Source: Candidatus Woesearchaeota archaeon (lineage in GTDB: Archaea > Nanobdellota > Nanobdellia > Pacearchaeales > GW2011-AR1). Taken from it: DNA of 64,000 nt. Below are positions 14,860-43,902 of the stretch, piece by piece. Below the pieces are notes generated by a model. It saw nothing but the letters and a program-made list of their open reading frames with translations, was not told where the DNA came from and did no database searches. Positions within the stretch are counted from its first letter, which is position 1. Each line of letters begins with the position of its first letter. Made by a program: the position numbers and the translations under genes. Location of the stretch: positions 6,435-70,434 of the forward strand of contig CAZQGH010000002.1 in assembly GCA_964592915.1 (NCBI GenBank). The letters run 5' to 3'.

Positions 14860-14898
14860 CTTTGATAGTGCTCAGAAATCCATAAAAGATTTCTGACA
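14860..14898 (+). repeat. hairpin-forming miniature repeat, copy 1 (intergenic)
   Basis: TTTGATAGTGCTCAGAAATC-cataaaa-GATTTCTGACAT. 9-bp inverted repeat CAGAAATC/GATTTCTG. Confidence 0.6.
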
Positions 14899-14982
14899 TG
14901 TGGTAACATACAGGGTTTTTTTGATTCTATAGTTAAACAAAAAAAGGATAAGATTTAAAAACCCTGAGATTTACAACAAATA

Positions 14983-15291
14983 ATGGAATTTTGTCCAAAG
15001 TGCGGTTCAGTGCTTATTGAAAAAGATAAGAAGTTCAGATGTGCTAAATGCAATTATGTGGCAAAAGGTAAAGTGAATATATCAGCAAAAGAGAAAGTTA
15101 ATGAAATGCATGAAATTGGAGTTATTAAGGAGAGAGATACAGATGTTTTTCCTGTAATTTCAGCAACATGTCCAAAATGTGGACATGAAGAAGCTCAGTT
15201 CTGGTCTGCTCAGACTAGAGCAGGAGATGAAGCAGAAACAAGGTTTTTCAGATGCGTTAAGTGCAAGCATACCTGGAGAGAATATAAATAA
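14983..15291 (+). CDS. tfs: transcription factor S / RNA polymerase subunit M (TFIIS-type zinc ribbon)
   Basis: N-terminal CPKCG...CAKC and C-terminal CPKCGH...QTRAGDEAETRFFRCVKCKHTWRE. Confidence 0.75.
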   Translation: MEFCPKCGSVLIEKDKKFRCAKCNYVAKGKVNISAKEKVNEMHEIGVIKERDTDVFPVISATCPKCGHEEAQFWSAQTRAGDEAETRFFRCVKCKHTWREYK

Positions 15292-15347
15292 TTGCATTCT
15301 GTTTTCGAAGTTGTAATTGGGATTCTAATCCTGATGAGATTTGTTTT

Positions 15348-16049
15348 GTGTTTAGTAATTTTTATAAATATGTAAGTATGAGAGTAAATATGAACACACA
15401 AATTTATCAGATAAAAGGAATTATATTTGATTTTGATATGACTTTAGTTGATTCTAAAAAGGTTGGAGATGAAGCTCTTGAATACATGGAAGAATATGGT
15501 ATCTCAAGAAAAGATTTTACTGATAAAGAAATTTGGGGAATGACTCATTTAGAGTTTTGTAAAAAATTATCTGAAGTTAATAATCATAAATTATCATGGC
15601 AGGAGATTAGTAAATTAAATCAGAACTTCCTGATTAAAAATTTTTTAAAATTGAAATTAAATTGCCTTGAATTGCTTGAAGAATTAAACAAAAAGAAAAT
15701 TAAAATTGGTATTGTATCAAATAATAAAAGAGAGTTTATTAAAACTACTCTATCGAATAAGTATAACAAGAATATAAATTTTGAATTTATCCTAACTTGT
15801 GAGGATTTAGAAGATAATTCAACAAAAACAGATTTATTATTGAAAGGACTGGAAATTTTATCTTTAAAAAGAAATGAAGTCATGTATGTAGGAGATCATG
15901 TCAACGATATATTAGCTGCAAAAAAAGCAGGAGTAATCTCTGTTGGAATCTCAACAGGAGTTCATTCTTTTGATGAATTAAAACAAAAGAATCCGGATAT
16001 TTTAATTAGAAATCTAAATGAATTAAATAATCACCTAAATAATTCTTAA
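15348..16049 (+). CDS. HAD-superfamily hydrolase (beta-phosphoglucomutase-like)
   Basis: Motif I FDFDMTLVDS, motif III K, motif IV GDHVNDILAAKKAG. The true start may be an internal Met (MRVNM/MNTQ). Confidence 0.65.
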   Translation: MFSNFYKYVSMRVNMNTQIYQIKGIIFDFDMTLVDSKKVGDEALEYMEEYGISRKDFTDKEIWGMTHLEFCKKLSEVNNHKLSWQEISKLNQNFLIKNFLKLKLNCLELLEELNKKKIKIGIVSNNKREFIKTTLSNKYNKNINFEFILTCEDLEDNSTKTDLLLKGLEILSLKRNEVMYVGDHVNDILAAKKAGVISVGISTGVHSFDELKQKNPDILIRNLNELNNHLNNS

Positions 16050-16101
16050 TATTTAATAACAAATATTTTTAAATTGTTTTTTCTTAAATAAATTACAATG
16101 A

Positions 16102-16176
16102 GGATCTGTAGCTCAGTTTGGTTAGAGCACTGCCCTCTTAAGGCAGGTGTCGCAGGTTCAAATCCTGCCAGGTCCA
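16102..16176 (+). tRNA. tRNA-Lys (anticodon CTT)
   Basis: Cloverleaf: acceptor GGATCTG/CAGGTCC, D arm GCTC..GAGC, anticodon stem CTGCC/GGCAG with loop CTCTTAA, T arm GCAGG-TTCAAAT-CCTGC. Discriminator A, no encoded CCA. Confidence 0.8.
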
Positions 16177-16269
16177 TTTAATATGGAAATAGTGTTGATT
16201 GGTTGTGGTAAAAAGTAAAAGAAGCATAAGGCAAAAGCAAGGGAGTTGTATGAGAGTTCTTTATTTAGG

Positions 16270-16590
16270 ATGAATTTAAAATATGCAGAACAAATCGGAG
16301 ATGAGATATTTATTTTGTCTGCTAAACATCATTTATTGGATTTAGATAGGGAAATTGAGCCTTATGATTTAACACTGAACAAAATGAGCAAGAATAAAAG
16401 ACAAAAGTGGGCAGAAAAAGTTTTAAATAATTTGAAACTAAAAACAGATTTAAATAATGATGAGTTTATTTTTTTAGCCGGGAAAAAATACAGAGAATTT
16501 TTATCACCCTATATAAATAATTACAAAATTCCTATGAGGGGATTGGGAATTGGCAAGCAATTAAAATTTTTAAAACAAAATGTCAGTTGA
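16270..16590 (+). CDS. hypothetical protein (conserved ILSAKHHLLDLD...EPYDLTL...KRQKWAEKV motif)
   Basis: The ORF track starts at a TTG (16246); the ATG at 16270 (MNLKYAEQ) is more likely. Lies directly downstream of tRNA-Lys. Confidence 0.4.
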   Translation: MNLKYAEQIGDEIFILSAKHHLLDLDREIEPYDLTLNKMSKNKRQKWAEKVLNNLKLKTDLNNDEFIFLAGKKYREFLSPYINNYKIPMRGLGIGKQLKFLKQNVS

Positions 16591-16966
16591 ATGTGATAAA
16601 TTACATAAGTTATTTAATAGTTTGAAAAGATTTAGTTTCCAAAGTTTTGGGAGAGATATTTTAAAAATTCCTAAAAACGGAATTTATGTTTTATTTGAAA
16701 AGCAGGTTTCAAAGCTAATCCAGAATAATTTTTCTTTTGCTGTTTTGCCTGTTAAAGATAAAAAAACCAGACTGGAAATTGAATCTAAAGTTATATCAAC
16801 TGTTTCTTTATGTGATGAATGCAAGCCGAGTCCAAAATGGTTTGGATTGTTTTCTCCAAAAAATAAAATTAGGGAATCAGGATTATGGTTGATAAATGAG
16901 CTGTATAAAACTCCGATTGATAAAAAAACTTTTAAAAAATTGGAGAAAATAATAAAATTTAATTAA
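16580..16966 (+). CDS. hypothetical protein (GIYVLFEK motif)
   Basis: Overlaps the upstream gene by 11 nt. 128 aa. No confident domain. Confidence 0.35.
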   Translation: MSVECDKLHKLFNSLKRFSFQSFGRDILKIPKNGIYVLFEKQVSKLIQNNFSFAVLPVKDKKTRLEIESKVISTVSLCDECKPSPKWFGLFSPKNKIRESGLWLINELYKTPIDKKTFKKLEKIIKFN

Positions 16967-17025
16967 ATTTTGCTGAATTTTCAGAAAAATATATAAAGTT
17001 TGCCCTATTTAATTCAATACTTCTT

Positions 17026-17676
17026 TTGGAAAAGAGGATTTTAGAACTAAGATTAAGAAGCTTTAGAATTAAGACTGAGGATTATAGAGAGATGAAAAGA
17101 AAGATTAAAAAAAGAATATTTGAAGTATTAAAACAAATAAGAGAAGATATAAAATGCGAGAATTGTCCGTTTGGAGTTTTGGTTGTTTTCTCAGATTTAG
17201 CAAATGTTTTTGGCAGAGGAGCAATCCCCATTGGAGTTAAACCGACAGAATTTGAAGACACTTTTAATGTTGCAGGAAATATATTTGATGAAAATGCTTT
17301 CAAGATTATAAGAAAAGTAGGAGATGACGGAGCTGTATTAGTAGATGACGGGGGCAATATTTTAGCTCCAGCAGTTTACTTAAATGTTAATTTGTTTTCT
17401 GTTGATAAAGAGGAAATAGATGCTGAGTTTTGTGCAAGGCATATAGCTGCATTAGCAACATCATCAGCTACAAAAGCCAATGTTTATACATTAAGCGAGG
17501 AAACCGCCAAAGTTAGAGAATTTATTAGGGGAAAATTAAGAAAACAGCATCCTGAACCAGATTCTGAAAAATTATTAGAAAAAGTCCAGGAAGATATTCA
17601 AAAAGAGCAGATTAAAGAAAATCTTAAAAAGAAAATTAAAGAAAAGGCTATTGAAGTCGAGGTTCAGCAGAAATAA
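17026..17676 (+). CDS. diadenylate cyclase, DAC domain (DacZ-like)
   Basis: DDGAVLVDDGGNILAPAVYLNV followed by ARHIAALATSSATKANVYTLSEETAKV, matching the DAC DGA and RHRAA signature. C-terminal K/E-rich coiled coil. Confidence 0.6.
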   Translation: MEKRILELRLRSFRIKTEDYREMKRKIKKRIFEVLKQIREDIKCENCPFGVLVVFSDLANVFGRGAIPIGVKPTEFEDTFNVAGNIFDENAFKIIRKVGDDGAVLVDDGGNILAPAVYLNVNLFSVDKEEIDAEFCARHIAALATSSATKANVYTLSEETAKVREFIRGKLRKQHPEPDSEKLLEKVQEDIQKEQIKENLKKKIKEKAIEVEVQQK

Positions 17677-18348
17677 TTACCTAAAAAAATTTCTTATTGA
17701 AGAATAAAATCGTTTAATCAATCCTTCTTTTGGCAACTTTTCTGTTTCTGAATTAGATTCTACTCTCCCTACAATAAATTCTTTAACTAACTCAGGATTT
17801 TCTCTCACTTCACTTATTGTTGGAAAGTTAAATTCCCTTTCTGATTCATATCCTTTAAAATATCCTTGTTCTTCTAATTCCGAAATTATTGAATCTTTTA
17901 CAACACAAGGCATTATTTCTGCCATAATCACCTCCCTAGTTTTTTCATTTGTGAATCTTGTTGCCCATCTAATACCTAATGTTCCTTCATATGTGCATTT
18001 TGGGACATTATTTCCCGGAGTTCCAGATTCATAATGAATTATAATTTTCCCGGGATTTTCCATCATTAACCGAGTAATGTTTGAGGTGTAATGTCCACAA
18101 TAATGGCAACCATAACTTCCATCAGGATACATGAAATGCATTCCATTATCCATAGCTCTTTGGATTCTTGCTTCTAAAACTTCAGGTAATCCAGCCCAAT
18201 AAAATATTAATTTGCCAGGAACTTCATATACTTCTCCATTATGTTCAATAACATCCTCGGGTTCATCTTCACTTATTACTGGTTTTTGGGTTATAGGTAG
18301 TTCTTTCCCGTCCATGCTTGTCGCAATTACTTCGAGTCTTTTTTTCAT
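17677..18348 (-). CDS. hypothetical protein with Cys/His cluster (GCHYCGHY)
   Basis: 223 aa, convergent with the DAC gene. No confident family. Confidence 0.35.
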   Translation of the reverse strand: MKKRLEVIATSMDGKELPITQKPVISEDEPEDVIEHNGEVYEVPGKLIFYWAGLPEVLEARIQRAMDNGMHFMYPDGSYGCHYCGHYTSNITRLMMENPGKIIIHYESGTPGNNVPKCTYEGTLGIRWATRFTNEKTREVIMAEIMPCVVKDSIISELEEQGYFKGYESEREFNFPTISEVRENPELVKEFIVGRVESNSETEKLPKEGLIKRFYSSIRNFFR

Positions 18349-18398
18349 AACTCTTTTAGAAGAATTATCTTTTTAAAGATTGTTGCATTATTTTATAT

Positions 18399-18983
18399 AT
18401 GAGAAAAATAAATAAGATTAAACCAGAAATTCGGATATTGGGGGTGGATGATTCACCATTTTCATTTGAAGATGAAAATGTAAAGATTATTTGCTCAGTA
18501 TTCAGAGGAGCAAATTATATTGATGGGTTGATAAGCTTTGATATTGAAAAAGATGGAGATGATTTTTCTGAAAAATTAATTGAAAACATAAATAATTCAA
18601 GGCATAAGGAGCAATTGCAACTAATAATGCTTGATGGAATTACCTTCGGAGGATTTAATGTTGCAGATATTCATCTTATAAGTCAGAAAACAGATTTGCC
18701 AGTCATAGTTGCGATAAGGAAAAAACCTGAAATGGAAAAGTTCATTGAGGCTTTGAAAAAAGTTGATGCTTCACAAGTAGAGAAAATTAAAAAAGTCGGA
18801 GAAGTTAAAGAGATAAATCTCGGAAGAAATAAAGTTTATGTTCAGTTAGCCAATATGTCTTTAAAAGAAGCTGAAGAAATTTTACAATTGACATGCATTC
18901 ATTCAAACATACCAGAGCCGATAAGAGTTTCCCATTTAATTTCAACTGGAATATATTTTGGCGAGAATAAACCCGGAGCTTAA
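18399..18983 (+). CDS. DUF99/UPF0215 family protein (EndoV-like fold)
   Basis: N-terminal IRILGVDDSPF, characteristic of archaeal DUF99. Confidence 0.5.
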   Translation: MRKINKIKPEIRILGVDDSPFSFEDENVKIICSVFRGANYIDGLISFDIEKDGDDFSEKLIENINNSRHKEQLQLIMLDGITFGGFNVADIHLISQKTDLPVIVAIRKKPEMEKFIEALKKVDASQVEKIKKVGEVKEINLGRNKVYVQLANMSLKEAEEILQLTCIHSNIPEPIRVSHLISTGIYFGENKPGA

Positions 18984-19249
18984 CTAACTATTCTTTTAAT
19001 CTCATCAATATGGTCTGCAATTTCTCTGCCTTTTTTTGTTAAATTAATCAATTTGATTCTTCCTTTCTTTTCAAAAGTTACTAAATCCATTTTTTCTAAA
19101 TTTTGCAGAATTTTTACTGCATGACTATATGTGCAATCAACTTCTTTAGCTAAAACTGAGCCGTATTTTGATTTTGACATTTTTTTCAAAGCAACCAGCA
19201 TTAAAGCCGGCTTTCTTCTGAAAAATACATCGAAATTATCTTTTGCCAT
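18980..19249 (-). CDS. small winged-helix transcriptional regulator
   Basis: 89 aa. wHTH-like SVLAKEVDCTYSHAVKILQNLEKMDLV. Confidence 0.4.
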   Translation of the reverse strand: MAKDNFDVFFRRKPALMLVALKKMSKSKYGSVLAKEVDCTYSHAVKILQNLEKMDLVTFEKKGRIKLINLTKKGREIADHIDEIKRIVS

Positions 19250-19372
19250 TTTCCCTTAGTCTATAACATATGTTTTTTAAGATATATGTTTTACTATATA
19301 ATATCCCTTTTAAAGCTTTCGTTTCCGAAGGTATTAAAAATTCACTACCGCCTAGAAAATATTTTTCCCAAC

Positions 19373-20110
19373 TTAATGAGTCTCAATTAACGGAACAAAC
19401 ACATATTCTTCCTGAGTTTTGAATTTTTTTAGTTTATCATCTTTGTGATAAATTAACATTGGTCCTGAAGTTTGAGGGCAAATTAAAGTGCCTTGCTGCT
19501 TTAATAATTTTTTAGCTAATTGCTTTATTTTATTTTCCTGCTCTTTGTTATGGATTCCTGCTGTGAAAATTATTTTATCATACTTCTTTTTCCAGCTTCT
19601 GCCTTTTTCAAATATGTTTTCTGCTACAAAATTTAATCTCTGTAATTTTGGATAATCTTCTGGGTGGTGTTGTTTTAAGTAATTTCTTAATTTTGAGACA
19701 TTTTTTTCTGCTTTTTCTTTCAATTTGACAATTCTTTCAACACTCAAAACATTTCCTGGGTAGACTAAATAAGCAATTAAACATGCATTCCATCCAGAAC
19801 CAGCTCCAATTTCCAAAACATCATCTTCTCTTTCTAAATCTGCAAGTAAAAGCATTCTTGCAACAGTTGAAGGCTGACTTATAGTTTGCCCTTGTCCAAT
19901 TCCTAAAGCTGTATCATAATATGCTTTGTTATCTTTTACAAAAAATTTTCTGTCTAATTGCTGAATTGCAAATATAATCTTTTCCAGCAACTTTTCCTGG
20001 TCTGAACTCAGCAGAAATTTTTTGTTAAATTCAAAAACTGATTTAAGCATAGGCTGCATTTTTTTATTTGCTTTTTTGATTATAATTTTTACATCTTTTT
20101 CTAAACTCAT
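19373..20110 (-). CDS. pcm: protein-L-isoaspartate O-methyltransferase
   Basis: TISQPSTVARML and LEIGAGSGWNA (SAM motif I). Carries an N-terminal extension. Confidence 0.7.
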   Translation of the reverse strand: MSLEKDVKIIIKKANKKMQPMLKSVFEFNKKFLLSSDQEKLLEKIIFAIQQLDRKFFVKDNKAYYDTALGIGQGQTISQPSTVARMLLLADLEREDDVLEIGAGSGWNACLIAYLVYPGNVLSVERIVKLKEKAEKNVSKLRNYLKQHHPEDYPKLQRLNFVAENIFEKGRSWKKKYDKIIFTAGIHNKEQENKIKQLAKKLLKQQGTLICPQTSGPMLIYHKDDKLKKFKTQEEYVFVPLIETH

Positions 20111-20182
20111 AAATTAAAAAAGATAAACTTATTAATAAATGTTTCTCGTAAGTTTTAAATACATATATTAGCAATTATTAGT

Positions 20183-21445
20183 ATGTTAGATATTAATTTA
20201 TTAAGAGAAAATCCTGAGAAAGTCAAGAAAAGTGTAATAAACAGAGGAAAGGATGAAAAAATAGTTGATGAATTTTTAAAATTAGATGAAAACTGGAGAG
20301 AATTAAAGAAAAAATCTGATGAACTGAGAGCTTATAGAAACAAGCTGAGCAAGGAAATAAATCAGGCAAAAAAATCAGGAAAAGATGTTAAAAAGCTGAT
20401 AAAAAAAGCAAAAGAAATCCCGAAGAAACTGGAAAAAGCTGAAAAGAAACTTAATCAGATTGAGAAACAAAGGCGTGAAATATGGAAAAAAATTCCCAAT
20501 CTTGTTGATAAATCTGTTCCTATTGGAGATGAAAGCAAAAATAAAGTAATTAAAAAATACGGAAAAACCAAGAAAGGAGAAAAAGCACATGCAGATATTA
20601 TGGAAAATATGGATTTAATTGACACAGAAAAAGCTTCTTTTGTTTCAGGAGCAAGATTTTATTATTTGAAAAGAGAATTAGTTAAATTGAATTTAGCTAT
20701 AATCAATTTTGCTATTGATTTTCTATATGATAAGAATTTTATATTAATGCAGCCTCCTTATATGTTGAGAAGAGAAATTTTAGAAGGTGCAATAAATTAT
20801 GAAACTTTCGAAGATGCGATTTATAAAATTGAAAATGAAGATTTATATTTAATTGGAACTGCAGAGCATGCTTTAAATGCTTATAAATCTGGTGAGGTGA
20901 TTAATCCAAAGGAATTACCCTTAAGATTTGCAGGTATTTCTCCGTGTTTTAGAAAAGAGGCTGGAGCTCATGGTAAAGATACAAAAGGCATATTTAGGAC
21001 TCATCAGTTTGAGAAAGTTGAGCAGTTTGTTTTTTGTAAACCTAGTGAGTCATGGAAAGAGTATGAACTAATATTAAATAATACTATAGAAATGTTTAAG
21101 CAGATAGGCATTCCTTTCAGAACTGTTATTTTGTCAAGTGAGGATATGGGCTCTATACCAACAAAAACAATTGATTTAGAAGGATGGTTTCCTAGTCAGA
21201 ATCAGTATAGAGAATTAGCTTCTTGTTCTAATTGTCTGGATTATCAAGCTAGGAGAAGCAATACAAGATTTCAGGATGGAAACGAATTAAATTATGTTCA
21301 CACTTTAAATAATACAGCTATTGCTACAGAAAGAATGATGACATGTATTGTTGAGAATTTTGTTAATAATAAAGGAGAGATTGAAGTTCCTAAAGTTTTG
21401 CAAAAATACACTGGTTTTAAGATTATTAAACCTGTTAAAAATTAA
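20183..21445 (+). CDS. serS: seryl-tRNA synthetase
   Basis: N-terminal coiled-coil arm (MLDINLLRENPEKV) and class II motifs (RFAGISPCFRKEAG, GTAEHA). Confidence 0.85.
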   Translation: MLDINLLRENPEKVKKSVINRGKDEKIVDEFLKLDENWRELKKKSDELRAYRNKLSKEINQAKKSGKDVKKLIKKAKEIPKKLEKAEKKLNQIEKQRREIWKKIPNLVDKSVPIGDESKNKVIKKYGKTKKGEKAHADIMENMDLIDTEKASFVSGARFYYLKRELVKLNLAIINFAIDFLYDKNFILMQPPYMLRREILEGAINYETFEDAIYKIENEDLYLIGTAEHALNAYKSGEVINPKELPLRFAGISPCFRKEAGAHGKDTKGIFRTHQFEKVEQFVFCKPSESWKEYELILNNTIEMFKQIGIPFRTVILSSEDMGSIPTKTIDLEGWFPSQNQYRELASCSNCLDYQARRSNTRFQDGNELNYVHTLNNTAIATERMMTCIVENFVNNKGEIEVPKVLQKYTGFKIIKPVKN

Positions 21446-22644
21446 GTTATTACAGAATAAACTGATTCTAAATCTCTTATATAATCAAGTATTTCTTCAT
21501 TGGGCATTTGATATAATCTAAATCTCGTTTTTGCGGTTGTGGTTCCTTGCAGATGGTCTGAGGAATTATCTTTGATATTAATATCTTCAGATGCAAGCAT
21601 TTGAGTTATGTTTGCAAAAACTCCAGGTTCATCTTCATGATGGATATGAACAACATATAATTCAGTTTTTTCATCCTCTTCTCCATCTCCGTCAGAAATA
21701 TTAATAAAATTTCTTGATTCTCCATTTTTCAGGTAATTAACTATAACTTCAGCCATTTCAATGGCTGTTTTTCTTTGTGCTTCTTGGGTATTTGCCCCTA
21801 AATGTGATGTTAAGACAATATTATCTAAACTCTTATACTTATTTTTCCATTTTTCTCCTTCTTTTCCTTCATCTCTGTAAACATCTAATCCTGCGCCTCT
21901 TATTTTTCCAGTTGCCAATGCGCCATAGACTGTTTCATTATCTATATTTTCGCCTCTTGATACATTGATTAGTATTGAATTTTCATTCATTAATTCTATT
22001 TCTTTTTCTCCAATAATTACAGATTTTCCTCCAGTATGTATTGAAACAAAATCTGCATTTTTCAAAACAAATTCTTTATCTTTTAACTGGATTTTTGAAT
22101 CTGGATATCCTGCTTTAACTTTTTCAGGGTATAAATCACTTCCAATAACCCAATCAAATGGGGGAGATGCTAGTTGGGATAATCTTTGTCCTATTCTTCC
22201 GCAGCCCAAAATCCCTAAAGTTCTTCCTGATAATTCTATACCTTTAAATTGTTTTTTTGCCCAAATGCCATTTTTCAATTCATAATGTGACTGGGGGATA
22301 AATCTTGAAACTGCAAACATTAAACCTAGAGCATGCTCTGCAGCTGCATTTGTATTTCCGTTTGGAGCATTTGCAACAGGAATTCCATATTCTGATGCAG
22401 TTTGAATATCAATATTGTCATAACCCACTCCTGCTCTTCCGATTATTTTTAATTTCCCTCCATACCCCGCTTCTATTACTTCTGGAGTAACTTTTGTTGC
22501 ACTTCTTACAACAAGAGCATCATAATTTCTAATATCCTGGATTAAATCATCTAAACTTCTTTTTTCAGAATCAGTTTCAAATCCAGCATTTTGTAAAATT
22601 TCAACGCCTTCTTGAGATAATCCATCATTAAGTAATATTTTCAT
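21442..22644 (-). CDS. serA: D-3-phosphoglycerate dehydrogenase-like 2-hydroxyacid dehydrogenase with C-terminal ACT domain
   Basis: GILGCGRIGQRL NAD-binding fold, and a catalytic region with ACT-like C-terminus. Overlaps the serS stop by 4 nt (convergent). Confidence 0.6.
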   Translation of the reverse strand: MKILLNDGLSQEGVEILQNAGFETDSEKRSLDDLIQDIRNYDALVVRSATKVTPEVIEAGYGGKLKIIGRAGVGYDNIDIQTASEYGIPVANAPNGNTNAAAEHALGLMFAVSRFIPQSHYELKNGIWAKKQFKGIELSGRTLGILGCGRIGQRLSQLASPPFDWVIGSDLYPEKVKAGYPDSKIQLKDKEFVLKNADFVSIHTGGKSVIIGEKEIELMNENSILINVSRGENIDNETVYGALATGKIRGAGLDVYRDEGKEGEKWKNKYKSLDNIVLTSHLGANTQEAQRKTAIEMAEVIVNYLKNGESRNFINISDGDGEEDEKTELYVVHIHHEDEPGVFANITQMLASEDINIKDNSSDHLQGTTTAKTRFRLYQMPNEEILDYIRDLESVYSVIT

Positions 22645-26823: not shown

Positions 26824-26842
26824 AAAAATTAAACGAAAAAAC

Positions 26843-36030: not shown

Positions 36031-36130
36031 TGCACCAGGCGGGAATTGAACCCACGTCACAAGCTTTTTCCTAATCCTGTTTTGTTTAGGAGATTGGGAA
36101 GCTTGAATCTTACCACTGGACCACTGGTGC
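36031..36130 (-). tRNA. intron-containing tRNA, best read as tRNA-Gly (CCC) with a ~29-nt intron at canonical position 37/38
   Basis: Acceptor GCACCAG/CTGGTGC perfect. T arm GTGGG-TTCAATT-CCCGC. Anticodon stem CAAGC/GCTTG. Loop TT-CCC-A, then an intron whose 3' end (GGAA) pairs with loop TTCC to give a 4-bp BHB central helix with 3-nt bulges. Intron has an internal hairpin TCCTAA/TTAGGA. Alternative register gives Trp(CCA) but with C33. Confidence 0.55.
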
Positions 36131-36144
36131 ATTTAGTTTTATTT

Positions 36145-36672
36145 TTAATTTTCTAAAAATTTTTTTAATTTGTTTAATGCAAGTAATCTCATTGAGATTT
36201 TATTTTTTTCTTTTTCAGTCATTTGAGCAAATGTTTTGTTATAATTGTCAGGGATAAAAACAGGATCCCATCCAAAATTTGTATTTCCTTTGGGTTTTTC
36301 CGGAATTATACCAGTCAATTTTCCTGAGAATATTTTTAAATTATTTCCATCATGATATCCAATGCAGGTTTCAACTTCAGCTTTATTCCCATATATTTTA
36401 GATAGATTGCATATTCCTTTATTTCCTATTGAATTTAAAACCCATTTAATCAATGCTCCGGGAAAATTTATGCTTTTAATATAAAAGCCTGTGTCTTCCA
36501 CAATAACTGGTTTTTTTGTGATTTTATATGCTCTTAGTATTTTATCTTCTACAACTTTTTTAACATCAATTGCCTGAATTTCTGGTAAATCAATGTTTTT
36601 TTGTTCTATTTTTTTATTTAAAATTTGTTCAAACTCTCTTAATTTGTTTTGATTAGAAGTTATAAATTGCAT
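36145..36672 (-). CDS. non-canonical purine NTP pyrophosphatase (Ham1/ITPase family)
   Basis: FITSNQNKLRE...VEDTGF...FGWDPVF. Confidence 0.7.
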   Translation of the reverse strand: MQFITSNQNKLREFEQILNKKIEQKNIDLPEIQAIDVKKVVEDKILRAYKITKKPVIVEDTGFYIKSINFPGALIKWVLNSIGNKGICNLSKIYGNKAEVETCIGYHDGNNLKIFSGKLTGIIPEKPKGNTNFGWDPVFIPDNYNKTFAQMTEKEKNKISMRLLALNKLKKFLEN

Positions 36673-36758
36673 TATTTTAGTAAAACAACTGCGTTTTTAT
36701 ATTTTCTGATAAATTTGAAGAACTTCAAAAAATTTTTAAACTCCAATCATTAATACTT

Positions 36759-37205
36759 TTGACAATGAAATCTGAGCCAGAATGGTTTTATGGAACGAAA
36801 GGAGCAGTAGAAAGACCTACTAACAGAGCAAGAGGATTATTTCCTGTTGAAAGATTTTTTGCAAGGTATGTTGATGAATATGGGGGAATAGAAAGATTAA
36901 GATGTGTTAGACATAATGGCAGATATGAGAGAAAAGTTTACCAAAGAGCTAATGATGAATTAAGAAACAAACCTTTTATTGGGGAACTGATTAAGAAGGC
37001 AGAAGAGCAAGCAGATAGTGATAAATCTGTATATATTGTTGATGGAAATCTTTCAGACAGATTAATCCTCCCTTTTAGTGATTTAATAACCCAGGTTGAA
37101 GAGCCATTAGAAAGAGCTTTATTACAAGGGAAAAATGCAAGAGATTCTTTATTGAACTTTGGTAATGGAGAACTAACATTTATTATGGACTTAGATATCA
37201 GTTAA
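36759..37205 (+). CDS. hypothetical protein
   Basis: 148 aa. No domain recognised. Confidence 0.3.
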   Translation: MTMKSEPEWFYGTKGAVERPTNRARGLFPVERFFARYVDEYGGIERLRCVRHNGRYERKVYQRANDELRNKPFIGELIKKAEEQADSDKSVYIVDGNLSDRLILPFSDLITQVEEPLERALLQGKNARDSLLNFGNGELTFIMDLDIS

Positions 37206-37235
37206 TCTTAAATATACTAATTTTATATTGTAATT

Positions 37236-38660
37236 ATGGCAAAGGAAAAAGCATTTTATGTTACTACAGCAATTGATTATGTCAATGCTAGTCCTCATAT
37301 AGGGCATGCATTTGAAAAAGTTTTAGTTGATGCTATATCAAGGTGGAAAAAATTAAAGGGGAAAGAAGTGAGATTTTTAACTGGAACAGATGAAAATGCT
37401 CAAAAAAATGTTCAGGCAGCAAAAGATGCAGGAGTTGATGTTAAAGATTTTGTAGATAAAAATTCTAAATTATTTATCAAGTTATGTGAAGTTTTGAATA
37501 TAAATTATGATGAGTTTATTAGAACAACGCAGCAAAAACATAATAGAAAATCACAGGAGATATTTAAAAAAGTTTATGATAAAGGAGACATTTACAAAGG
37601 GAAATATGAAGGTTATTATTGCCAGGGATGTGAGGCATTTTTAACTGAAAAAGATTTAGTTGATGGGAAATGTCCTGAACATTACAAAGAGCCAGAATGG
37701 TTTTCCCAGGAAACTTATTTTTTCAAATTAAGCAATTATAAAGATAAAGTTTTAAAATTTATTCAAGATTATATTATTCCCGAGGAAAGAAAAAATGAGA
37801 TTATCAGCAGGTTAGAAAGCGAAGAGTTAAAAGATTTATCTGTTTCGAGAATTAATCTCGATTGGGGGATTGATGTTCCGATTGATAAAAACCATAAAAT
37901 TTATGTTTGGTTTGACGCATTGATAAACTATCTTTCTGGTGCAGATGGAGAGTGGCCTGCTGATTTGCATGTAATTGGCAAAGGGATAAATTGGTTTCAT
38001 TCAGTTATCTGGCCTGCAATGTTAATGTCAGCTGAAATTGAACTGCCAAAAAAATTGTTAGTTCATGGTTATCTGAATTTAAAAGGAGAAAAAATGTCAA
38101 AATCAAAAGGTAATGTTATTGACCCTTTAAAATTAGCTGAAAAATACAAATCAGATTCTATTAGGCATTCATTACTAAGATGTTCAGTATTTGAAGATTC
38201 AGATTATTCTGAGCAAATATTAATTGAAAGACATAACACAGAGTTAGCAAACAAATTCGGCAATTTAGTTTCAAGAGTTACAAGTTTGGCTGAGAAATAT
38301 GGTATTGAAAAAAACGATAATAAACTGATTAAGAAGTTAAAGCTGGAAGAAATTGAGAAGTTAATGGAGGGTTATGAATTAGATAAGGCATTAAATTTAA
38401 TATTTGAATTTATTGATGTTTGCAATGAGTATGTTCAGGAAAAAAAGCCCTGGAAAACTGAAGATAAAAAGGTGTTATATGAATTAGCTGATTCTATAAA
38501 AGCAATAGCAATATTTTTGTTTCCGTTTATTCCCGAAACATCTGAAAAAATTGCCAGGCATTTTGGATTTGAGATTAAATTTGAAAATATAAAAAAGCAA
38601 TTAAAAGAAAAGCAGATTAAAAAATCTGAGATTTTATTTGAAAAAATAAAAAATGAATAA
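37236..38660 (+). CDS. metG: methionyl-tRNA synthetase (short form, no C-terminal tRNA-binding domain)
   Basis: HIGH motif SPHIGHAF, KMSKS motif KMSKSKGN, Zn knuckle CQGC...C. 474 aa. Confidence 0.85.
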   Translation: MAKEKAFYVTTAIDYVNASPHIGHAFEKVLVDAISRWKKLKGKEVRFLTGTDENAQKNVQAAKDAGVDVKDFVDKNSKLFIKLCEVLNINYDEFIRTTQQKHNRKSQEIFKKVYDKGDIYKGKYEGYYCQGCEAFLTEKDLVDGKCPEHYKEPEWFSQETYFFKLSNYKDKVLKFIQDYIIPEERKNEIISRLESEELKDLSVSRINLDWGIDVPIDKNHKIYVWFDALINYLSGADGEWPADLHVIGKGINWFHSVIWPAMLMSAEIELPKKLLVHGYLNLKGEKMSKSKGNVIDPLKLAEKYKSDSIRHSLLRCSVFEDSDYSEQILIERHNTELANKFGNLVSRVTSLAEKYGIEKNDNKLIKKLKLEEIEKLMEGYELDKALNLIFEFIDVCNEYVQEKKPWKTEDKKVLYELADSIKAIAIFLFPFIPETSEKIARHFGFEIKFENIKKQLKEKQIKKSEILFEKIKNE

Positions 38661-38913
38661 ATTTGAGAAATACAGAAGACAAATTGACAAAATAAACAAT
38701 AAAATTATTTCTTTATTAGCTGAGAGAATGAAAATTGTAAAGAAAGTAGGGGAATATAAAAAGAAGAACAATATGAAGATTACAGATAAAAAAAGAGAAG
38801 AGAAAATCTATGCCGAAGTTAGAAGAAATGCTAAAAAATATGATTTATTTCCTGAATATATAGAGCAGGTATTCAGATGCATAATCAGTAATTCCAAAAA
38901 AGCTGAAAAATAA
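38653..38913 (+). CDS. chorismate mutase (AroQ type)
   Basis: 86 aa. LRRQIDKINNKIISLLAERMKIVKKVGEYK. Overlaps the metG stop by 8 nt. Confidence 0.55.
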   Translation: MNKFEKYRRQIDKINNKIISLLAERMKIVKKVGEYKKKNNMKITDKKREEKIYAEVRRNAKKYDLFPEYIEQVFRCIISNSKKAEK

Positions 38914-38945
38914 TATTAAGAAACTTATAAAAATAAATAATCATT

Positions 38946-39731
38946 ATGATTTCTATGGCTAAGGGAAGAACCAGTAAAAAGCAAAATAGAAAGTATGTGA
39001 TAGGGATAATTGGAGGAACAGGGTTACTAGGAAGAACATTTGCAAAATTTTTCAGAAAACATAATCATAAGGTTTTAATTGCTGGAAGAAAAACCAAATT
39101 AAATTATGGAGATTTGGCTGAAAAATGTGATGTTGTTATATTCTCCTTGCCAATTAGTGTAACTCCGAAAATTATAAAGAAAATCAGAAAAAAAGTTAGA
39201 GCTAATCAGTTATTAATGGATTTTACTTCAGTTAAAAGAGATTCTGTAAAGGAAATGATGAAATCCAAAGCATCAGTGATTGGTTTGCATCCGATGTTTG
39301 GTAAGGTTGAGAGCTTGAAAGGAAAAACAATTATAGTTATTCCAGCTAGAATAAACAGAAATGAAGAATGGATGACATGGTTGTTATATTTGTTTAAAAA
39401 GGGAAATGTTAAAGTTAAGGTTACAACTCCTGAAAACCATGATAAAATTATGGCAGTCTTGCAGGGTTTAATGCATTTTAATTTTATTGTAATGAGTAAG
39501 ACATTGAGAGAAATTGAAAAAAAGTATAAGATTAATTTAGATGAGCTGATTGATTTTGGAGGCATTATTTACAAATTAAGATATGAGATGATTTCCAGAA
39601 TACTAAATAATGAGGGTGAAATGCATGCTGATATATCAATAAAAAACAAAACAACAAACACAGTTTTAAAAGAATATGAAAAGCAGGTTAAACAATTGAG
39701 AAAGATAATTGGAAGGGAAAATAAAAAATAA
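38946..39731 (+). CDS. tyrA: prephenate dehydrogenase
   Basis: IGIIGGTGLLG Rossmann motif and HPMFG motif. Confidence 0.65.
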   Translation: MISMAKGRTSKKQNRKYVIGIIGGTGLLGRTFAKFFRKHNHKVLIAGRKTKLNYGDLAEKCDVVIFSLPISVTPKIIKKIRKKVRANQLLMDFTSVKRDSVKEMMKSKASVIGLHPMFGKVESLKGKTIIVIPARINRNEEWMTWLLYLFKKGNVKVKVTTPENHDKIMAVLQGLMHFNFIVMSKTLREIEKKYKINLDELIDFGGIIYKLRYEMISRILNNEGEMHADISIKNKTTNTVLKEYEKQVKQLRKIIGRENKK

Positions 39732-39898
39732 TTTGTAAAGTTTTATAATGAAGCAGGAGATTTTTATAAAAATTTTAAAAAACAGGCATTAGAAGATACT
39801 ACAAAGTTAATTGAACAATTTTCAGAACTAGAAAATAAAAAGCAAAAGAAGCAGAAGATGAAATCAAAAACTAGAAGCAAATCAAAATCAAATAAAAA

Positions 39899-40762
39899 AT
39901 GATAGCTACTTTAGGACCAAACGGAACATTTTCAGAATTGGCATGTAAAAATTACACAGATGAAGAAATTTTATTTTGCAAAAACATAAAAGAGGTTTTT
40001 GATGCTGTTGAATTTAACAAAGCCAGAATAGGAATGGTTCCAGTAGAAAATATGCTGGATGGTTCTGTTGGGGAAACTTTGGATTTGTTGCATAGAGGTA
40101 ATGTTTATGTTATTGATGAAGTTCTTGTTGAGATACACATGTATTTAGCAGGGAAAAATAGTTTAAATGACATAGAAGTTGTAATGTCTAAAGATAAAGC
40201 ATTAGGGCAGTGTTTAGATTTTATTAGAAAGCATAATTTTGAAATAAAAGAAACCTTATCTACTGCTGAAGCAATGAAAATTGTTTCAGAATCGGAAAAA
40301 AAATATGGCGCTATAGGAACAAAATTAGCTGCTGGGCAGTATGGTTTGAAAATTTTAGCAGAAAATATTGAAGACTTCAGAAACAATGTTTCTGACAGTG
40401 CTCAGAAATCTTCCGATTTCCGACATAATAAAAACAATATTACAAGATTTTTTGTTATTAGTAAAAAAAAGAAAGAAAAGAACATAAGAAAAAATCCAGA
40501 TAAAAAATACAAAACAAGCATAGCAATTAAACCAAATGAGGACAGACCAGGTTTACTACATGACTTATTGCAGGCATTTGCAAAAAGAAATATTAATTTG
40601 ACTAAAATTGAATCTCGTCCTACTAAGATAAACTTAGGAGAATATATATTTTATATTGATTTTGAAGGACATGAGAAAGACGAAGATGTTAAAAAGGCAT
40701 TTGAAGAATTAAGAAAATTGGATGATTTGAAAATATTTGGAAGTTATGAAAAGAAATTTTAA
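39899..40762 (+). CDS. pheA: prephenate dehydratase with C-terminal ACT domain; carries an in-frame 39-nt repeat insertion
   Basis: PDT domain (IATLGPNGTFSE...NITRF) plus ACT. 13 extra residues VSDSAQKSSDFRH are encoded by the hairpin repeat at 40387-40425. Confidence 0.75.
   Translation: MIATLGPNGTFSELACKNYTDEEILFCKNIKEVFDAVEFNKARIGMVPVENMLDGSVGETLDLLHRGNVYVIDEVLVEIHMYLAGKNSLNDIEVVMSKDKALGQCLDFIRKHNFEIKETLSTAEAMKIVSESEKKYGAIGTKLAAGQYGLKILAENIEDFRNNVSDSAQKSSDFRHNKNNITRFFVISKKKKEKNIRKNPDKKYKTSIAIKPNEDRPGLLHDLLQAFAKRNINLTKIESRPTKINLGEYIFYIDFEGHEKDEDVKKAFEELRKLDDLKIFGSYEKKF
40387..40425 (+). repeat. hairpin-forming miniature repeat, copy 2 (in-frame inside pheA)
   Basis: GTTTCTGACAGTGCTCAGAAATC-ttcc-GATTTCCGACAT. 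39 nt, exactly 13 codons, flanked by AACAAT..AACAAT. Confidence 0.6.
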
Positions 40763-41137
40763 AATGGGAGCAAATATACAAAAAGAGTTGGAAGAGGAAG
40801 ATGATAAAAAATTGAATAATTTTCATAAGGAATTTTCTAATTTTCCAAAAAAACAAGATATTAATCAGATAGAAAATAAAAAATTAAAAAAAGAATTTGC
40901 AAAATTTATTTTACAGCTAATTAAAGAAACATATAAGGATATTAAACCAATAAGTAATACTTGTGAGAATATTTGAGGGTTTGTTCAGTATGATTTTGAT
41001 GATGAGATAGATGAAGTTATTAGCATAGCTTACAATCAGGAAGTTCCAGTTGATAGTGAAGAAAAAACACTTGAAGAATGGGGCAAAATGAAAAAATTAT
41101 TAGAAAAATATATTAAATCTCTAATATTGTTATAGAT

Positions 41138-41545
41138 ATGAAAATAAAAATAATAACTAAATATGGAGAAGTCAATGCTGAGTTGAATGGTACTGAGACA
41201 GCTAAAGAGATTTATGATAATTTGCCTATAGAAGGAGAAGCAAATGTATGGGGAGAAGAAATATATTTTAAAATTCCTGTTTCCAGAGAAACTGAAGAGC
41301 CAAAAAAAAGAACGATGGAAATTGGAGATTTAGCTTATTGGAGTGAAGGGAAAGCATTTTGCATATTTTTTGGCAAAACTCCTGCATCTATTGATGAAAA
41401 TCCAAGAGCAATTTCTGATGTAACTTTTTTAGGGAGAGCAAAAAATATAGAAATGTTTAAAAAAGTTAAAGACAATGAAAAAATAACTCTTGATAAAGCT
41501 GAGGAAAATATGGATAATAAAGAGGAGGATAATGAAGATGAGTGA
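41138..41545 (+). CDS. cyclophilin-like fold protein (DUF3830/TM1367-like), putative
   Basis: Pattern NLPIEGEANVWGEEIYF...GDLAYWSEGKAFCIFFGKTP. Confidence 0.4.
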   Translation: MKIKIITKYGEVNAELNGTETAKEIYDNLPIEGEANVWGEEIYFKIPVSRETEEPKKRTMEIGDLAYWSEGKAFCIFFGKTPASIDENPRAISDVTFLGRAKNIEMFKKVKDNEKITLDKAEENMDNKEEDNEDE

Positions 41546-41888
41546 GGAAAATAATGAAGGAATTGTCAAATTTTCAGAATGGATGAAACTAGATTTAAGA
41601 GCTGGCAAAATATTAAAAGTAGAAGATATAGAAGGAGCTGATAAGCTGTATAAACTTGAGGTAGATACTGGAGATAAAAAAAGAGTTTTAGTAGCAGGCT
41701 TGAAACCTTATTATGAAAAAGAGGAATTGATAAATAAAAGATGTGTTGTTTTTTGCAATTTAGAGCCAAAAAAAATGAAAGGGATTAAAAGCGAGGGAAT
41801 GATATTAGCAGCTGTAAATGAAGGTGAATCTAAAGTTAATTTGCTGCAGCCAGATAAAGAAATTGAATCAGGTTCAAAAATCAGGTAA
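41532..41888 (+). CDS. stand-alone tRNA-binding domain protein (Trbp111/CsaA/EMAP-like)
   Basis: LDLRAGKILKVEDIEGADKLYKLEVDTGD...EGMILAA. The track ORF starts at 41490 and overlaps upstream; an internal Met is likelier. Confidence 0.6.
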   Translation: MKMSEENNEGIVKFSEWMKLDLRAGKILKVEDIEGADKLYKLEVDTGDKKRVLVAGLKPYYEKEELINKRCVVFCNLEPKKMKGIKSEGMILAAVNEGESKVNLLQPDKEIESGSKIR

Positions 41889-42019
41889 TTAGACATATAA
41901 TTCTAAGGATAAGCATATTTTTAAAATCAAATAGAAAAAGAATTCCTGGAAAGATTAGTTCAATGAGATATATTGAAAAGATTGCAGAATTAGCTTTATT
42001 AGAAGAAATAATTGTATAA

Positions 42020-42778
42020 TCATAATCCAACTTTTCTTAAAACTTTTTCAAACAAAGAATCTTCTTTAATTGGTCTTCCCAATATTTTTCTTGCAACTTT
42101 GTCATAGGCTTTAGCTGCTTTGGATTTAGGATGAGTATGATAAATGGCATCTTTTCTTGCTAAAGATTCCTGCATTTTCTTTTCTTCGGGAACAATTCCT
42201 AAAACAGGAATTTCTAACATCTCCCTAATGCTTGTTAAAGACATTTCAGTTGGCTTTCCTTTATATCTTGTTATTATTACCCCCCGAACAGTTTTGCCTT
42301 TTTCATCAGCAACTTTTATTGTTTTTAATGCATCAGTAACTGAAGGTATTTCTGGGTGGGTGACAATAATCAATTCTTCTCCGGCTTCAATTACTTTTAA
42401 TGATTCTTCGCCTAATCCTGCAGGGGAATCCAGGATGATAATATCTGAATAATTTTTTAAATTATTAGTTATTTCTGAAAACTTATCTAATTTTAATTTT
42501 TTTAATTCTTTAATTGATAAATCTGAGGGAATAATTTTAGTTCCAGAATCATGCTCATAAATAGCTTCATGTATCTCAGCTTCATCCCTTAAAACATGAT
42601 TTAATGTTATTGGAGCAATTGGTGCTCCCAGATATAATCCAACATTAGGAGTGGTAAGATTTGCATCTACTACAACAACATTTTCCCCCATTGAATTGAA
42701 AGCTGCACCTAAATTAATTGCAGTGGTGGTTTTACCAACACCTCCTTTTCCTGAAGTCACAACATAAATTTTAGCCAT
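42020..42778 (-). CDS. minD: MinD/ParA-family ATPase
   Basis: Deviant Walker A VTSGKGGVGKTT. Confidence 0.75.
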   Translation of the reverse strand: MAKIYVVTSGKGGVGKTTTAINLGAAFNSMGENVVVVDANLTTPNVGLYLGAPIAPITLNHVLRDEAEIHEAIYEHDSGTKIIPSDLSIKELKKLKLDKFSEITNNLKNYSDIIILDSPAGLGEESLKVIEAGEELIIVTHPEIPSVTDALKTIKVADEKGKTVRGVIITRYKGKPTEMSLTSIREMLEIPVLGIVPEEKKMQESLARKDAIYHTHPKSKAAKAYDKVARKILGRPIKEDSLFEKVLRKVGL

Positions 42779-42829
42779 TTTAAAAATTTATTTTTTAGAT
42801 ATTAAAAATCTTTTGATTTTTGGTACTTA

Positions 42830-43267
42830 TTAAGAAACAAATTGTTTTATAAAGCTTATGTATTTGTCAATTATTATACTGTACTCTTTTAATTTGTCCA
42901 AATCAATATTTACATAATCTCCTTTATCCATAACTTTTAAAGTTAGGTTTTTTCTAAATTCGCTTTCTCTTTGTTTTTGGGCATTTTCGATTCTTTTAAA
43001 AAATTCATATAACTCCAAAGTTTCCATAATTTCCGGAGTTTTTTTAAACACTTCTTTTAATTTTTCGAGTTTCATTCGAGGAGCAGTCGGAATAGAAGAA
43101 ATTTTTTTCTTTTTCTTTACTTGTTCAAGCAACATATCCATACCTACCTCTATTAAACTTCGCCATCTTGCTATCAAGTTTAGCATAACATCAACTGTTT
43201 TAGTGTATTTTAAACTTACATATAGAAGATGGTCTGCACTAATTTTTTCCTGTATTATTCTCTCCAT
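42830..43267 (-). CDS. hypothetical helical protein (paralog of next gene)
   Basis: SADHLLYVSLKYTK... aligns with TADHMTYMTYPLIK... in 43338..43808. Confidence 0.35.
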   Translation of the reverse strand: MERIIQEKISADHLLYVSLKYTKTVDVMLNLIARWRSLIEVGMDMLLEQVKKKKKISSIPTAPRMKLEKLKEVFKKTPEIMETLELYEFFKRIENAQKQRESEFRKNLTLKVMDKGDYVNIDLDKLKEYSIIIDKYISFIKQFVS

Positions 43268-43337
43268 TTTTTTTGAAAAATGCTGAAAGGGCTAAAAATT
43301 ACTATGTTATGGTAATATAAATACCTTTCTATTCTTC

Positions 43338-43808
43338 TCATATTTTCCTTCTTATTTTATTTTCTGCTTTTTTAAGAATTTGTTTGGTTTTAATTAGAAA
43401 CTCCTTGATATCTGGCAAATCTATAGTTTCTGTATGTAAATTGTCAGTCATTATTACAATTTTATCCTTTTTTACAAATTCTAAAGGGGAATTTTTGTGT
43501 TTTTGAGTTAAAGTGAATACTTTTGAAATTACATTCATTTCTTCTTCAGTTATATTATAACGGGAAGCACATTTCTCTTTAAATGTTCTAAAGTTCTCTT
43601 TTGGGTCTTTATACAGCTGAATTCTCTTATATAGATACTCATATTGTAAAATTGAATTTAAAATATTCATTAAAGCTGTATTAAGCTGATTTAAGATTTT
43701 CAATAGCAATCGTTTTTCTTTTATTAATGGGTAAGTCATATAAGTCATATGGTCAGCTGTTTTTAAAATAGATATAGAATTCTCTAAGTATTCAATATAT
43801 TTTTCCAT
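43338..43808 (-). CDS. hypothetical helical protein (tandem paralog)
   Basis: Shares the N-terminal motif with 42830..43267. Confidence 0.35.
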   Translation of the reverse strand: MEKYIEYLENSISILKTADHMTYMTYPLIKEKRLLLKILNQLNTALMNILNSILQYEYLYKRIQLYKDPKENFRTFKEKCASRYNITEEEMNVISKVFTLTQKHKNSPLEFVKKDKIVIMTDNLHTETIDLPDIKEFLIKTKQILKKAENKIRRKI

Positions 43809-43866
43809 TTTCCCTTAGTTAGTAAAATCAAAGAAACAGGGGTTAATATATTTTATGTTTAACTTA

Positions 43867-43902
43867 ATGTCAGAAATCAAAGATTTCTGAGCACTGTCAA
43901 AA
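43867..43902 (-). repeat. hairpin-forming miniature repeat, copy 3 (intergenic, opposite orientation)
   Basis: Reverse complement reads TTTTGACAGTGCTCAGAAATC-tttg-ATTTCTGACAT. Confidence 0.6.

Follow-up and report, generated by a model that had tools for sequence, protein, structure and literature searches.

A palindromic hairpin doublet, probably a mobile DNA element, in a Woesearchaeota genome and other DPANN archaea

The window analyzed here, a 64-kb stretch of a Candidatus Woesearchaeota archaeon genome, carries three copies of a short repeat, one of them in frame within the prephenate dehydratase gene pheA. We consider it probable, at roughly three chances in four, that they belong to a palindromic mobile DNA element that is non-autonomous and occurs widely in DPANN archaea (Woese-, Pace-, and Nanoarchaeota). 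The mobile unit is 51-57 nt long and consists of two hairpin modules on one strand, for which reason we call it the doublet; to our knowledge it is among the smallest mobile units known. It inserts precisely and without target-site duplication, usually just 5' of a T. The initial annotation of this DNA had taken the repeat for a three-copy family, a view that does not survive a scan of one genome per GTDB species with the pattern GTGCTCAGAAA-N5-16-TTTCYGACA, which returned at least 118 matching stretches in public genomes.

Anatomy of the doublet and its three copies in the window

Exactly three sites in the window, at 14867 (+), 40397 (+), and 43882 (-), match the 14-mer AGTGCTCAGAAATC, and in all three cases GATTTCYGACAT follows 3-7 nt later. 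The 9-bp arms of this repeat fold as a hairpin, just as the initial annotation had predicted, and the sequence repeat it described is real, although each copy extends about 20 nt further in the 5' direction than it had proposed. Directly 5' of the annotated hairpin (hp2), all three copies have a second one (hp1), whose arms differ among the copies (C1, C2, and C3) yet remain complementary within each. Across about 100 archaeal copies, the unit can be written C-N-[hp1]-B-N'-GUG-C-[hp2]-CA, with the consensus 5'-C-N-[UCARAAA..loop..UUUYUGA]-B-N'-GUG-C-[UCAGAAA..loop..UUUCYGA]-CA-3' and a core length of 47-72 nt (mode 54). The three window copies and the host gene of C2 are laid out as follows.

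14843-14898 (+), copy C1, 56 nt, from the sequence, the covariance model, and an alignment with 38 other copies: C14843; N = T14844; hp1 14845-14865 (TCAAAGTTT tat AAACTTTGA); bulge T14866; N' = A14867; GTG-C 14868-14871; hp2 14872-14896 (TCAGAAATC cataaaa GATTTCTGA); CA 14897-14898
40375-40425 (+), copy C2, 51 nt, inside pheA, from the sequence, the PheA alignment, the covariance model, and AlphaFold2: C40375; N = T40376; hp1 40377-40395 (TCAGAAAC aat GTTTCTGA); bulge C40396; N' = A40397; GTG-C 40398-40401; hp2 40402-40423 (TCAGAAATC ttcc GATTTCCGA, with one A/C mismatch); CA 40424-40425
43868-43920 (-), copy C3, 53 nt, from the sequence, the open reading frame (ORF) list, and the covariance model: C43920; N = T43919; hp1 43918-43897 (TCAAAA ttcttaagac TTTTGA); bulge C43896; N' = A43895; GTG-C 43894-43891; hp2 43890-43870 (TCAGAAATC ttt GATTTCTGA); CA 43869-43868
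39899-40762 (+), pheA, encoding prephenate dehydratase with a prephenate dehydratase (PDT) and an ACT domain, host of C2, from the ORF list and from homologs with Pfam PF00800 and PF01842

A covariance model built from a 39-copy alignment scores C1 and C3 at 65.1 bits each (E 8e-15 for C1) and C2 at 58.9 bits. The E values of the three copies are 1e-13 to 1e-15; no other site in the window has E < 0.05, and the next-best match (14755-14823) reaches 15 bits with E 0.09. All three copies are in sense orientation, and C2 and C3 lie 3.5 kb apart on opposite strands.

The first hairpin is closed by a covarying pair N-N' (A-T in 22, G-C in 16, C-G in 15, and T-A in 11 of 94 copies) and has a single bulged base, B, on its 3' side; the second is closed by GUG/CAU and has a bulged C on its 5' side. 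Each module is thus marked by one bulged base beside the hairpin foot. In the 39 aligned copies, 96.9% of cells fall in standard pairs and both partners have changed in 10 of the pairs, values reached by none of 500 shuffles; when pairing partners were slid, 26-47% of cells were paired. Applied to 0.70 Mb of DPANN loci, the covariance model recovered about 30 further copies missed by the exact pattern, in which hp2 covaries too (UCAGGAA/UUCCUGA, UCAAGAA/UUCUUGA, UCGGAAA/UUUCCGA) while its foot, RUGMUCR...YGACA, stays fixed. Ascertainment therefore accounts in part for how conserved the hp2 stem looked at first sampling, but not for the conservation of the foot.

There is a symmetric subfamily (TGTCAGAAA..TTTCTGAGCA followed by TGCTCAGAAA..TTTCTGACA) with the termini TG...CA. 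Judging from the sequences, hp1 is a degenerate inverted copy of hp2 and the whole unit a dyad, because of which the reverse strand scores up to 60 bits, nearly equal to the forward strand. Loops can be as short as 3 nt or exceed 50 nt, and the stem tops covary. Both features point to a hairpin, whether extruded or single-stranded, and not to a site bound as duplex; on the same grounds, a double-stranded operator for a dimeric regulator is rejected.

Insertion into genes and other palindromes

The PheA of the window has 287 amino acids, where its homologs mostly have 267-275. C2 encodes residues 160-176, and this 17-residue block (FRNNVSDSAQKSSDFRH) is absent from all 21 aligned orthologs and unique to the window protein. 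The insert therefore measures 51 nt and 17 residues, not the 39 nt and 13 residues of the initial annotation, which was right that it is in frame and specific to the lineage. In the other aligned proteins, the site reads IED-xxxN-(V/I)TRF (in three of them exactly IEDNKNNVTRF), and deleting 40375-40425, or the same span shifted by one base, restores IED-NKNN-ITRF. The pair of AACAAT sequences that had been read as flanking direct repeats is present, but it is no target-site duplication: one member consists of the top and loop of hp1, the other of native Asn-Asn codons. An AlphaFold2 model computed on the ortholog alignment has a mean predicted local distance difference test score (pLDDT) of 87.5, and its sole segment below 50, residues 162-177, lies between the strand at 151-155 and the conserved TRF strand at 181-188. 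In this model, the 17 added residues make up a low-confidence loop, with the PDT core on one side and the TRF strand on the other. Since contigs from two independently assembled sequencing runs encode an identical 287-residue PheA, the insert is not an assembly artefact.

Of the two other copies in the window, both previously placed between genes, C3 is in part coding: the NAC gene (43906-44226, -; identity by Pfam) takes its last four codons (LQNS) and its stop from the first 15 nt of C3 (43920-43906, -), which appears to have replaced the native 3' end of that gene.

Beyond the window, an automated count placed about 18 of 107 copies within open frames, and the in-gene share is about 12-18%. 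A Pfam check covered nine host genes, seven of them housekeeping genes. In each gene below, the frame is open through the element.

SRP54, locus L065, antisense
Trm1, locus L045, antisense
RNase HII, locus L027, sense
Topoisomerase IA (TopA), locus L089, sense
S6e, locus L017, sense
aIF2-gamma (element at the N-terminal edge), locus L081, sense
YfhO-like membrane protein, locus L043, antisense
Zn-ribbon/AbrB antitoxin in three species, loci L092, L100, and L111, sense
PheA, the window, sense

The Pfam domains of Trm1 and RNase HII are each broken into two stretches around the insert, and SRP54 and RNase HII have about 16-18 extra residues at the insert when compared with solved structures; the SRP54 insert peptide includes MSETRNVSEHDQK. 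Sense copies within genes read S-[D/E]-x-A-Q-K-S...I-S-D and antisense copies M-S-E...I-S-E-H-x-Q-K. In each orientation, another frame, a hydrophobic one, also runs open across the hp1-hp2 junction; none of the checked in-gene copies uses it, and one unchecked copy (L011) reads in it. To go by these reading frames, the in-frame copies are apparently translated and tolerated in their host proteins. Blind insertion, followed by selection against all but hydrophilic in-frame inserts in tolerant loops, would produce this pattern. A single copy that breaks the frame was found, and the transposase gene that it interrupts is dispensable. A role as donor of start codons is rejected, since just 2 of 107 copies have a long ORF beginning at GACATG.

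The transposase gene provides a filled site with empty counterparts. At locus L103, an IS200-type tnpA (Pfam Y1_Tnp; gene region 2562-3171), whose ORF was the sole match to an IS608 TnpA query sequence, is split into two frames by a copy directly after the HUH motif. A metagenome scan with the repaired protein returned more than 557 intact relatives with 71-90% identity in Joint Genome Institute (JGI) metagenomes. Intact homologs with 87-90% amino acid identity (L119-L126) have the empty site CATT^TATTTG, and L103 has CATT-[52 nt, CATCC...CTGACA]-TATTTG: an insertion of exactly 52 nt that duplicates no base and breaks the frame. Across copies, the base 3' of the element is T in 84%; since the T belongs to the host in the filled/empty pair, this appears to be a target preference. 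The left flank has only a weak R-R-W-Y tendency, and the element termini are fixed to within 1 nt.

Copies also enter other palindromes, including one another. At L011 (470-660, -) and L038 (3925-4120, -), three levels are nested: the hp2 loop of one doublet holds a palindrome, CCGGGCT^TTAGCCCGG, whose own loop holds a second doublet; at L003 (3331-3445), the same palindrome is unoccupied. One genome has four copies that match one another exactly, flanks of about 40 nt included. At the junction, the flanks are complementary over 7 bp or more in 10 of 92 copies, against 0.8% in mismatched controls, so that residence in the loops of other palindromes is real but a minority feature; the same 10 of 92 excludes an outer stem as part of every element. 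Taken with PheA, the other housekeeping genes, the filled and empty sites, and the dozens of genomes that have more than one copy, the nesting bears out the earlier proposal of a mobile hairpin that tolerates insertion into coding sequence.

In the window, C1 lies at the centre of such a composite structure, next to a further hairpin.

14815-14925 (+), larger palindromic element of 111 nt with C1 at its centre and the arms ATCCTAAAAACCC (14815-14827) and GGGTTTTTTTGAT (14913-14925), from an alignment with composite elements in three other metagenome-assembled genomes (MAGs)
14760-14812 (+), extra single hairpin module of the same type, TCAGGAATGC...GCATTCCTGA, whose loop contains an inner palindrome, from the DNA fold and a weak model match

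The 111-nt element ends 58 nt 5' of the start of the TFS gene (14983) and has homologs, likewise carrying the doublet, in three further MAGs of Nanoarchaeota (L084/L097, L090/L099, and L107/L114). The single module lies between the stop of the ORF at 14308-14757 and the 111-nt element, adjoining both.

Distribution, orientation, and neighboring genes

Among the matches listed by the pattern scan, 15 bacterial stretches have no upstream hairpin and seem to be chance matches or unrelated conserved sequence. The remaining matches listed come from at least about 65 species-level assemblies, at least 62 of which are labelled as Woesearchaeota, Pacearchaeota, Nanoarchaeota/Nanoarchaeia, or unclassified or misnamed archaea, and three of which are small contigs binned as Candidate Phyla Radiation (CPR) bacteria or Aminicenantes. 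Genuine doublets occur in bins labelled Nomurabacteria, Parcubacteria, and Aminicenantes (L091, LBZW01000024; L094, LCPQ01000036; L020 and L088, JAFCCF01), which reflects either mis-binned DPANN contigs or cross-domain transfer. There are up to 7 loci per genome among the matches listed, and one 8-kb block holds up to 5 copies; the window has 3 copies in 64 kb, and its own host genome is not among the scan matches listed. Transport by viruses can be discounted: 2.9 million IMG/VR contigs contain a single genuine copy (L200, 4425-4481, -; 57 bits), on a 4.9-kb contig. Five of the 15 bacterial stretches are near-identical and lie on Poribacteria chromosomes (L004, L013, L014, L071, and L098); the sequence, GTGCTCAGAAATTTG...ACAGTTTCTGACAG, lies inside an antisense ORF of about 320 amino acids and appears to be an unrelated conserved locus.

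The gene content of the window (NAC, Sec61-beta, TFS, MinD, pheA) is of an AT-rich archaeal genome type, and the nearest relatives of its proteins are in Woese- and Nanoarchaeota MAGs. The window also has a tRNA of 100 nt at 36031-36130 (-), with an Rfam match of 49.9 bits and missed by ARAGORN, whose length suggests that it holds an intron.

The orientation of copies relative to transcription bears on whether the element acts as RNA or as DNA. Copies within genes are sense in 10 cases and antisense in 8 by the automated count, those between co-directional genes are sense in 13 and antisense in 20, and a further 16 lie in divergent and 11 in convergent spacers. Given this lack of bias in the larger sample, the all-sense arrangement in the window is due to chance. 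Rfam searches with gathering thresholds, and again allowing E up to 10, gave no match at any of the copies. Readings of the CUGA, GAAA, and ACA motifs as a hammerhead core, a K-turn (C/D box), or an H/ACA element were compared by hand and rejected because the spacing and the invariant positions do not fit; the H/ACA reading also lacks a pseudouridylation pocket. A structured RNA motif, offered by the initial annotation as an alternative to a mobile hairpin, is disfavored by the unbiased orientation, the presence of both orientations within genes, and the absence of an Rfam match, and action at the DNA level is favored over action at the RNA level.

A search for a mobilizing gene near the copies covered 0.76 Mb and found one Y1_Tnp gene, the interrupted one at L103. 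This IS200-type tnpA carries end sequences unrelated to the doublet and is not a candidate mobilizer, being itself interrupted by a copy and having more than 557 metagenomic relatives that the doublet does not flank. All-against-all clustering of 1,199 ORFs from the loci grouped only housekeeping, toxin-antitoxin, and Bro-N-like genes and reverse transcriptases, whose distances from the copies vary; IleRS is near copies in 7 loci, in no fixed arrangement. No gene family that consistently neighbors the copies emerged from this clustering.

Three side observations concern these neighbors. The L103-type Y1 transposase family (L103 and L119-L198) is strikingly conserved, with 71-90% amino acid identity over 183 amino acids, and many of its members have the end of the same gene upstream of them, as well as a conserved stretch, CCGACTAAAGTCGGGGGTTTCTCACGCAGAA..., that looks structured. 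Reverse-transcriptase genes with a retron-, diversity-generating retroelement (DGR)-, or group II-like motif, RDRIVHHAL, lie no more than a few kb from copies at L032, L087, and L103 (4392-5537). Toxin-antitoxin genes (PIN, RelE-like, nucleotidyltransferase) are frequent neighbors of copies.

Mode of movement, rival explanations, and known elements

A mobile element of this form could work as follows. The doublet would move as folded single-stranded DNA, and a dimeric, structure-specific enzyme encoded elsewhere in the genome would recognize its two symmetric bulged hairpins; by analogy, the nearest known paradigm for such an enzyme may be a HUH transposase of the IS200-RAYT type, where RAYT stands for the tyrosine transposase associated with repetitive extragenic palindromic (REP) sequences. 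The need to remain a substrate for this enzyme may be what keeps the hp2 foot nearly invariant among species. A more specific version, which we put forward tentatively and think rather less likely than not to hold in full, is that the doublet is the DPANN counterpart of the bacterial system of REPINs (paired REP sequences) and RAYTs: it would be mobilized by a conserved, vertically inherited protein recognizing the hairpin foot, and its in-frame insertions would repeatedly give new surface loops to essential proteins of these reduced genomes.

Several observations weigh against mobility as the full account. The hp2 foot, seen in genomes of 27-52% GC, is more strongly conserved than is usual for selfish repeats, which could mean host function instead. 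The copies in the Zn-ribbon/AbrB gene, which are orthologous and lie in the N-terminal coding region of a Zn-ribbon/AbrB(MazE)-type gene (L092 3988-4045, L100 3314-3371, and L111 833-890), have hardly changed among three species, in contrast to the remainder of the gene, which diverges. Apart from the interrupted tnpA of L103, the 8-kb neighborhoods of about 100 copies yielded no Y1 transposase, no integrase, and no other recurring gene, and 80 loci of intact L103 TnpA relatives (0.30 Mb) gave only two weak model matches. The weak consensus of the left flank is unlike the fixed tetra- or pentanucleotide target of IS200/IS605, and the opposite orientation of C2 and C3 at so short a distance is a poor fit to strict lagging-strand targeting.

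The first two of these points also speak for an alternative in which the doublet is a functional host element, for example an RNA or DNA hairpin that a conserved DPANN protein binds in mRNA stabilisation, termination, nucleoid organisation, or recombination; selection for such a role would keep the core of the doublet, and its spread would be secondary. Bacterial REP sequences have taken on host roles of this kind, the hp2 foot and the UCAGAAA/UUUCUGA stem are nearly invariant among about 65 species, and the window copies are all sense, with two between genes. We nevertheless regard this explanation as unlikely. Transcription orientation is unbiased, convergent and divergent spacers are used too, unrelated essential genes are hit in both orientations, there is no consistent neighbor gene and no Rfam match, and one copy destroys a gene (the L103 tnpA); host function alone leaves the precise new insertions and the nesting unaccounted for.

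Much less probable still is that the element is removed or skipped after transcription, as an mRNA intron or through translational bypass by way of the two bulged hairpins. The insertion boundaries lie within about 1 nt of the hairpin feet, which would bring the junctions together in space, the two bulges four base pairs apart loosely recall a bulge-helix-bulge motif, and the L103 tnpA would be intact if its 52 nt were taken out. A bulge-helix-bulge intron, however, has two 3-nt bulges on opposite strands with a 4-bp helix between them and its splice sites in the bulges; the pheA junctions, compared by hand, have 1-nt bulges on the same strand and no spanning 4-bp helix, and the splice sites would not fall within the four base pairs that separate the bulges. 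Removal would also make any constraint on the reading frame unnecessary, and the copies in essential genes keep the frame, avoid stops, and use one hydrophilic frame per orientation, which therefore counts against it. Antisense copies within genes would present a different RNA, and in a search for split genes rescued by deletion of the element only the transposase was convincing, four other candidates being nonsense fusions. As for a coincidental similarity of low-complexity or AT-rich sequence, or an assembly artefact, the AT-rich genome and a shuffle test with up to two mismatches, in which 4 of 100 shuffles gave at least three matches, lend it some initial plausibility. We regard it as refuted: exact matches extend to 51-56 nt with structure at the E values given above, the same doublet is present in more than 100 loci elsewhere, and the insert-bearing PheA is identical in two independent sequencing runs.

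Placing a mobile doublet among known systems gives a mixed picture: it departs from a classical miniature inverted-repeat transposable element (MITE), a REP, a Rickettsia palindromic element (RPE), and an IS200/IS605 derivative in one or more of the features that define each, and it resembles REP doublets and IS200/IS605-type ends in architecture and an RPE in behavior. Work on REPs, on the bacterial interspersed mosaic elements (BIMEs) and REPINs that they form, and on RAYTs is reportedly that of Bertels & Rainey 2011, Nunvar 2010, and Ton-Hoang 2012. Like a REP, the doublet is a short imperfect palindrome with a bulge and a 5' tetranucleotide (GTAG in REP, GTGC in the doublet), its inverted module pairs are the probable mobile unit, its many copies are dispersed without target-site duplication, and recognition is expected to be of folded single strands. 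Unlike REPs, which are extragenic by definition and tied to a single-copy RAYT flanked by its own REPs, 12-18% of doublets are inside genes and no such RAYT was found in the 0.76 Mb around them; the host is archaeal and the unit smaller. With IS200/IS605 elements and their miniature derivatives, the palindrome-associated transposable elements (PATEs), the doublet shares subterminal hairpins on one strand and precise insertion without duplication, and a dimeric enzyme binding two similar hairpins would suit its dyad. It differs in having a weak left-flank tendency where those elements have a conserved 4-5-nt target, and in having its boundaries at the hairpin feet rather than 10-20 nt away, and the sole IS200-type tnpA near a doublet is an insertion victim with unrelated end sequences.

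In behavior, the closest parallel is with the RPEs, described as non-autonomous and in frame in conserved genes of a reduced genome (Ogata et al. 2000, summarised in PMC2229807 and PMC10969869). Both are palindromic non-autonomous repeats that lie between genes and in frame in unrelated conserved genes, where they add a short, apparently tolerated peptide. However, an RPE is a single long stem-loop of 105-150 bp, whereas the doublet has two short bulged hairpins in 51-57 nt; RPEs are found only in Rickettsia and Wolbachia, in families specific to a species or genus, whereas the doublet core is found in dozens of archaeal species. The host is archaeal, and no sequence resemblance was seen. The palindromic repeats with coding potential of Methanocaldococcus jannaschii (Suyama et al. 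2005, cited in PMC2229807) are likewise archaeal palindromic DNA fused into protein genes, though in another lineage; this comparison is with the repeats as the citing review presents them.

A MITE census counts 105 MITEs per Mb in a 'Woesearchaea' genome, one of the archaeal genomes richest in them (PMC11602168). Doublets are small, multicopy, non-autonomous, and mostly intergenic like the MITEs of that census, as far as its main text describes them, and copies such as C1, placed in inverted-repeat elements, would be called MITEs by such software; the main text has no description of the doublet, of in-gene copies, or of conservation across species. In contrast to a classical MITE, the doublet is conserved in its interior, has the termini C-N...C-A, and makes no target-site duplication. 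The earlier label of MITE-like fits only loosely: target-site duplication is absent, classical terminal inverted repeats around a variable interior are not apparent, and the inverted pair of hairpin modules is nearer to REP doublets. No account of the doublet turned up in literature searches made by topic and by sequence string.

DPANN archaea have among the smallest and most streamlined cellular genomes, and, with few of them in culture, they are hard to study. If the doublet is indeed mobile, then a selfish element common to dozens of these species enters genes for topoisomerase, SRP54, aIF2-gamma, and the biosynthesis of amino acids, and persists in them. Its filled and empty sites could mark descent and gene flow among DPANN lineages, and the doublet could also confound insertion-based phylogenetic markers and gene calling in DPANN MAGs. 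It would further be a defined, very small substrate for finding a new structure-specific enzyme of DNA transposition or recombination, a search that the conservation of the hairpin foot makes tractable through phyletic profiling of genomes with and without the doublet.

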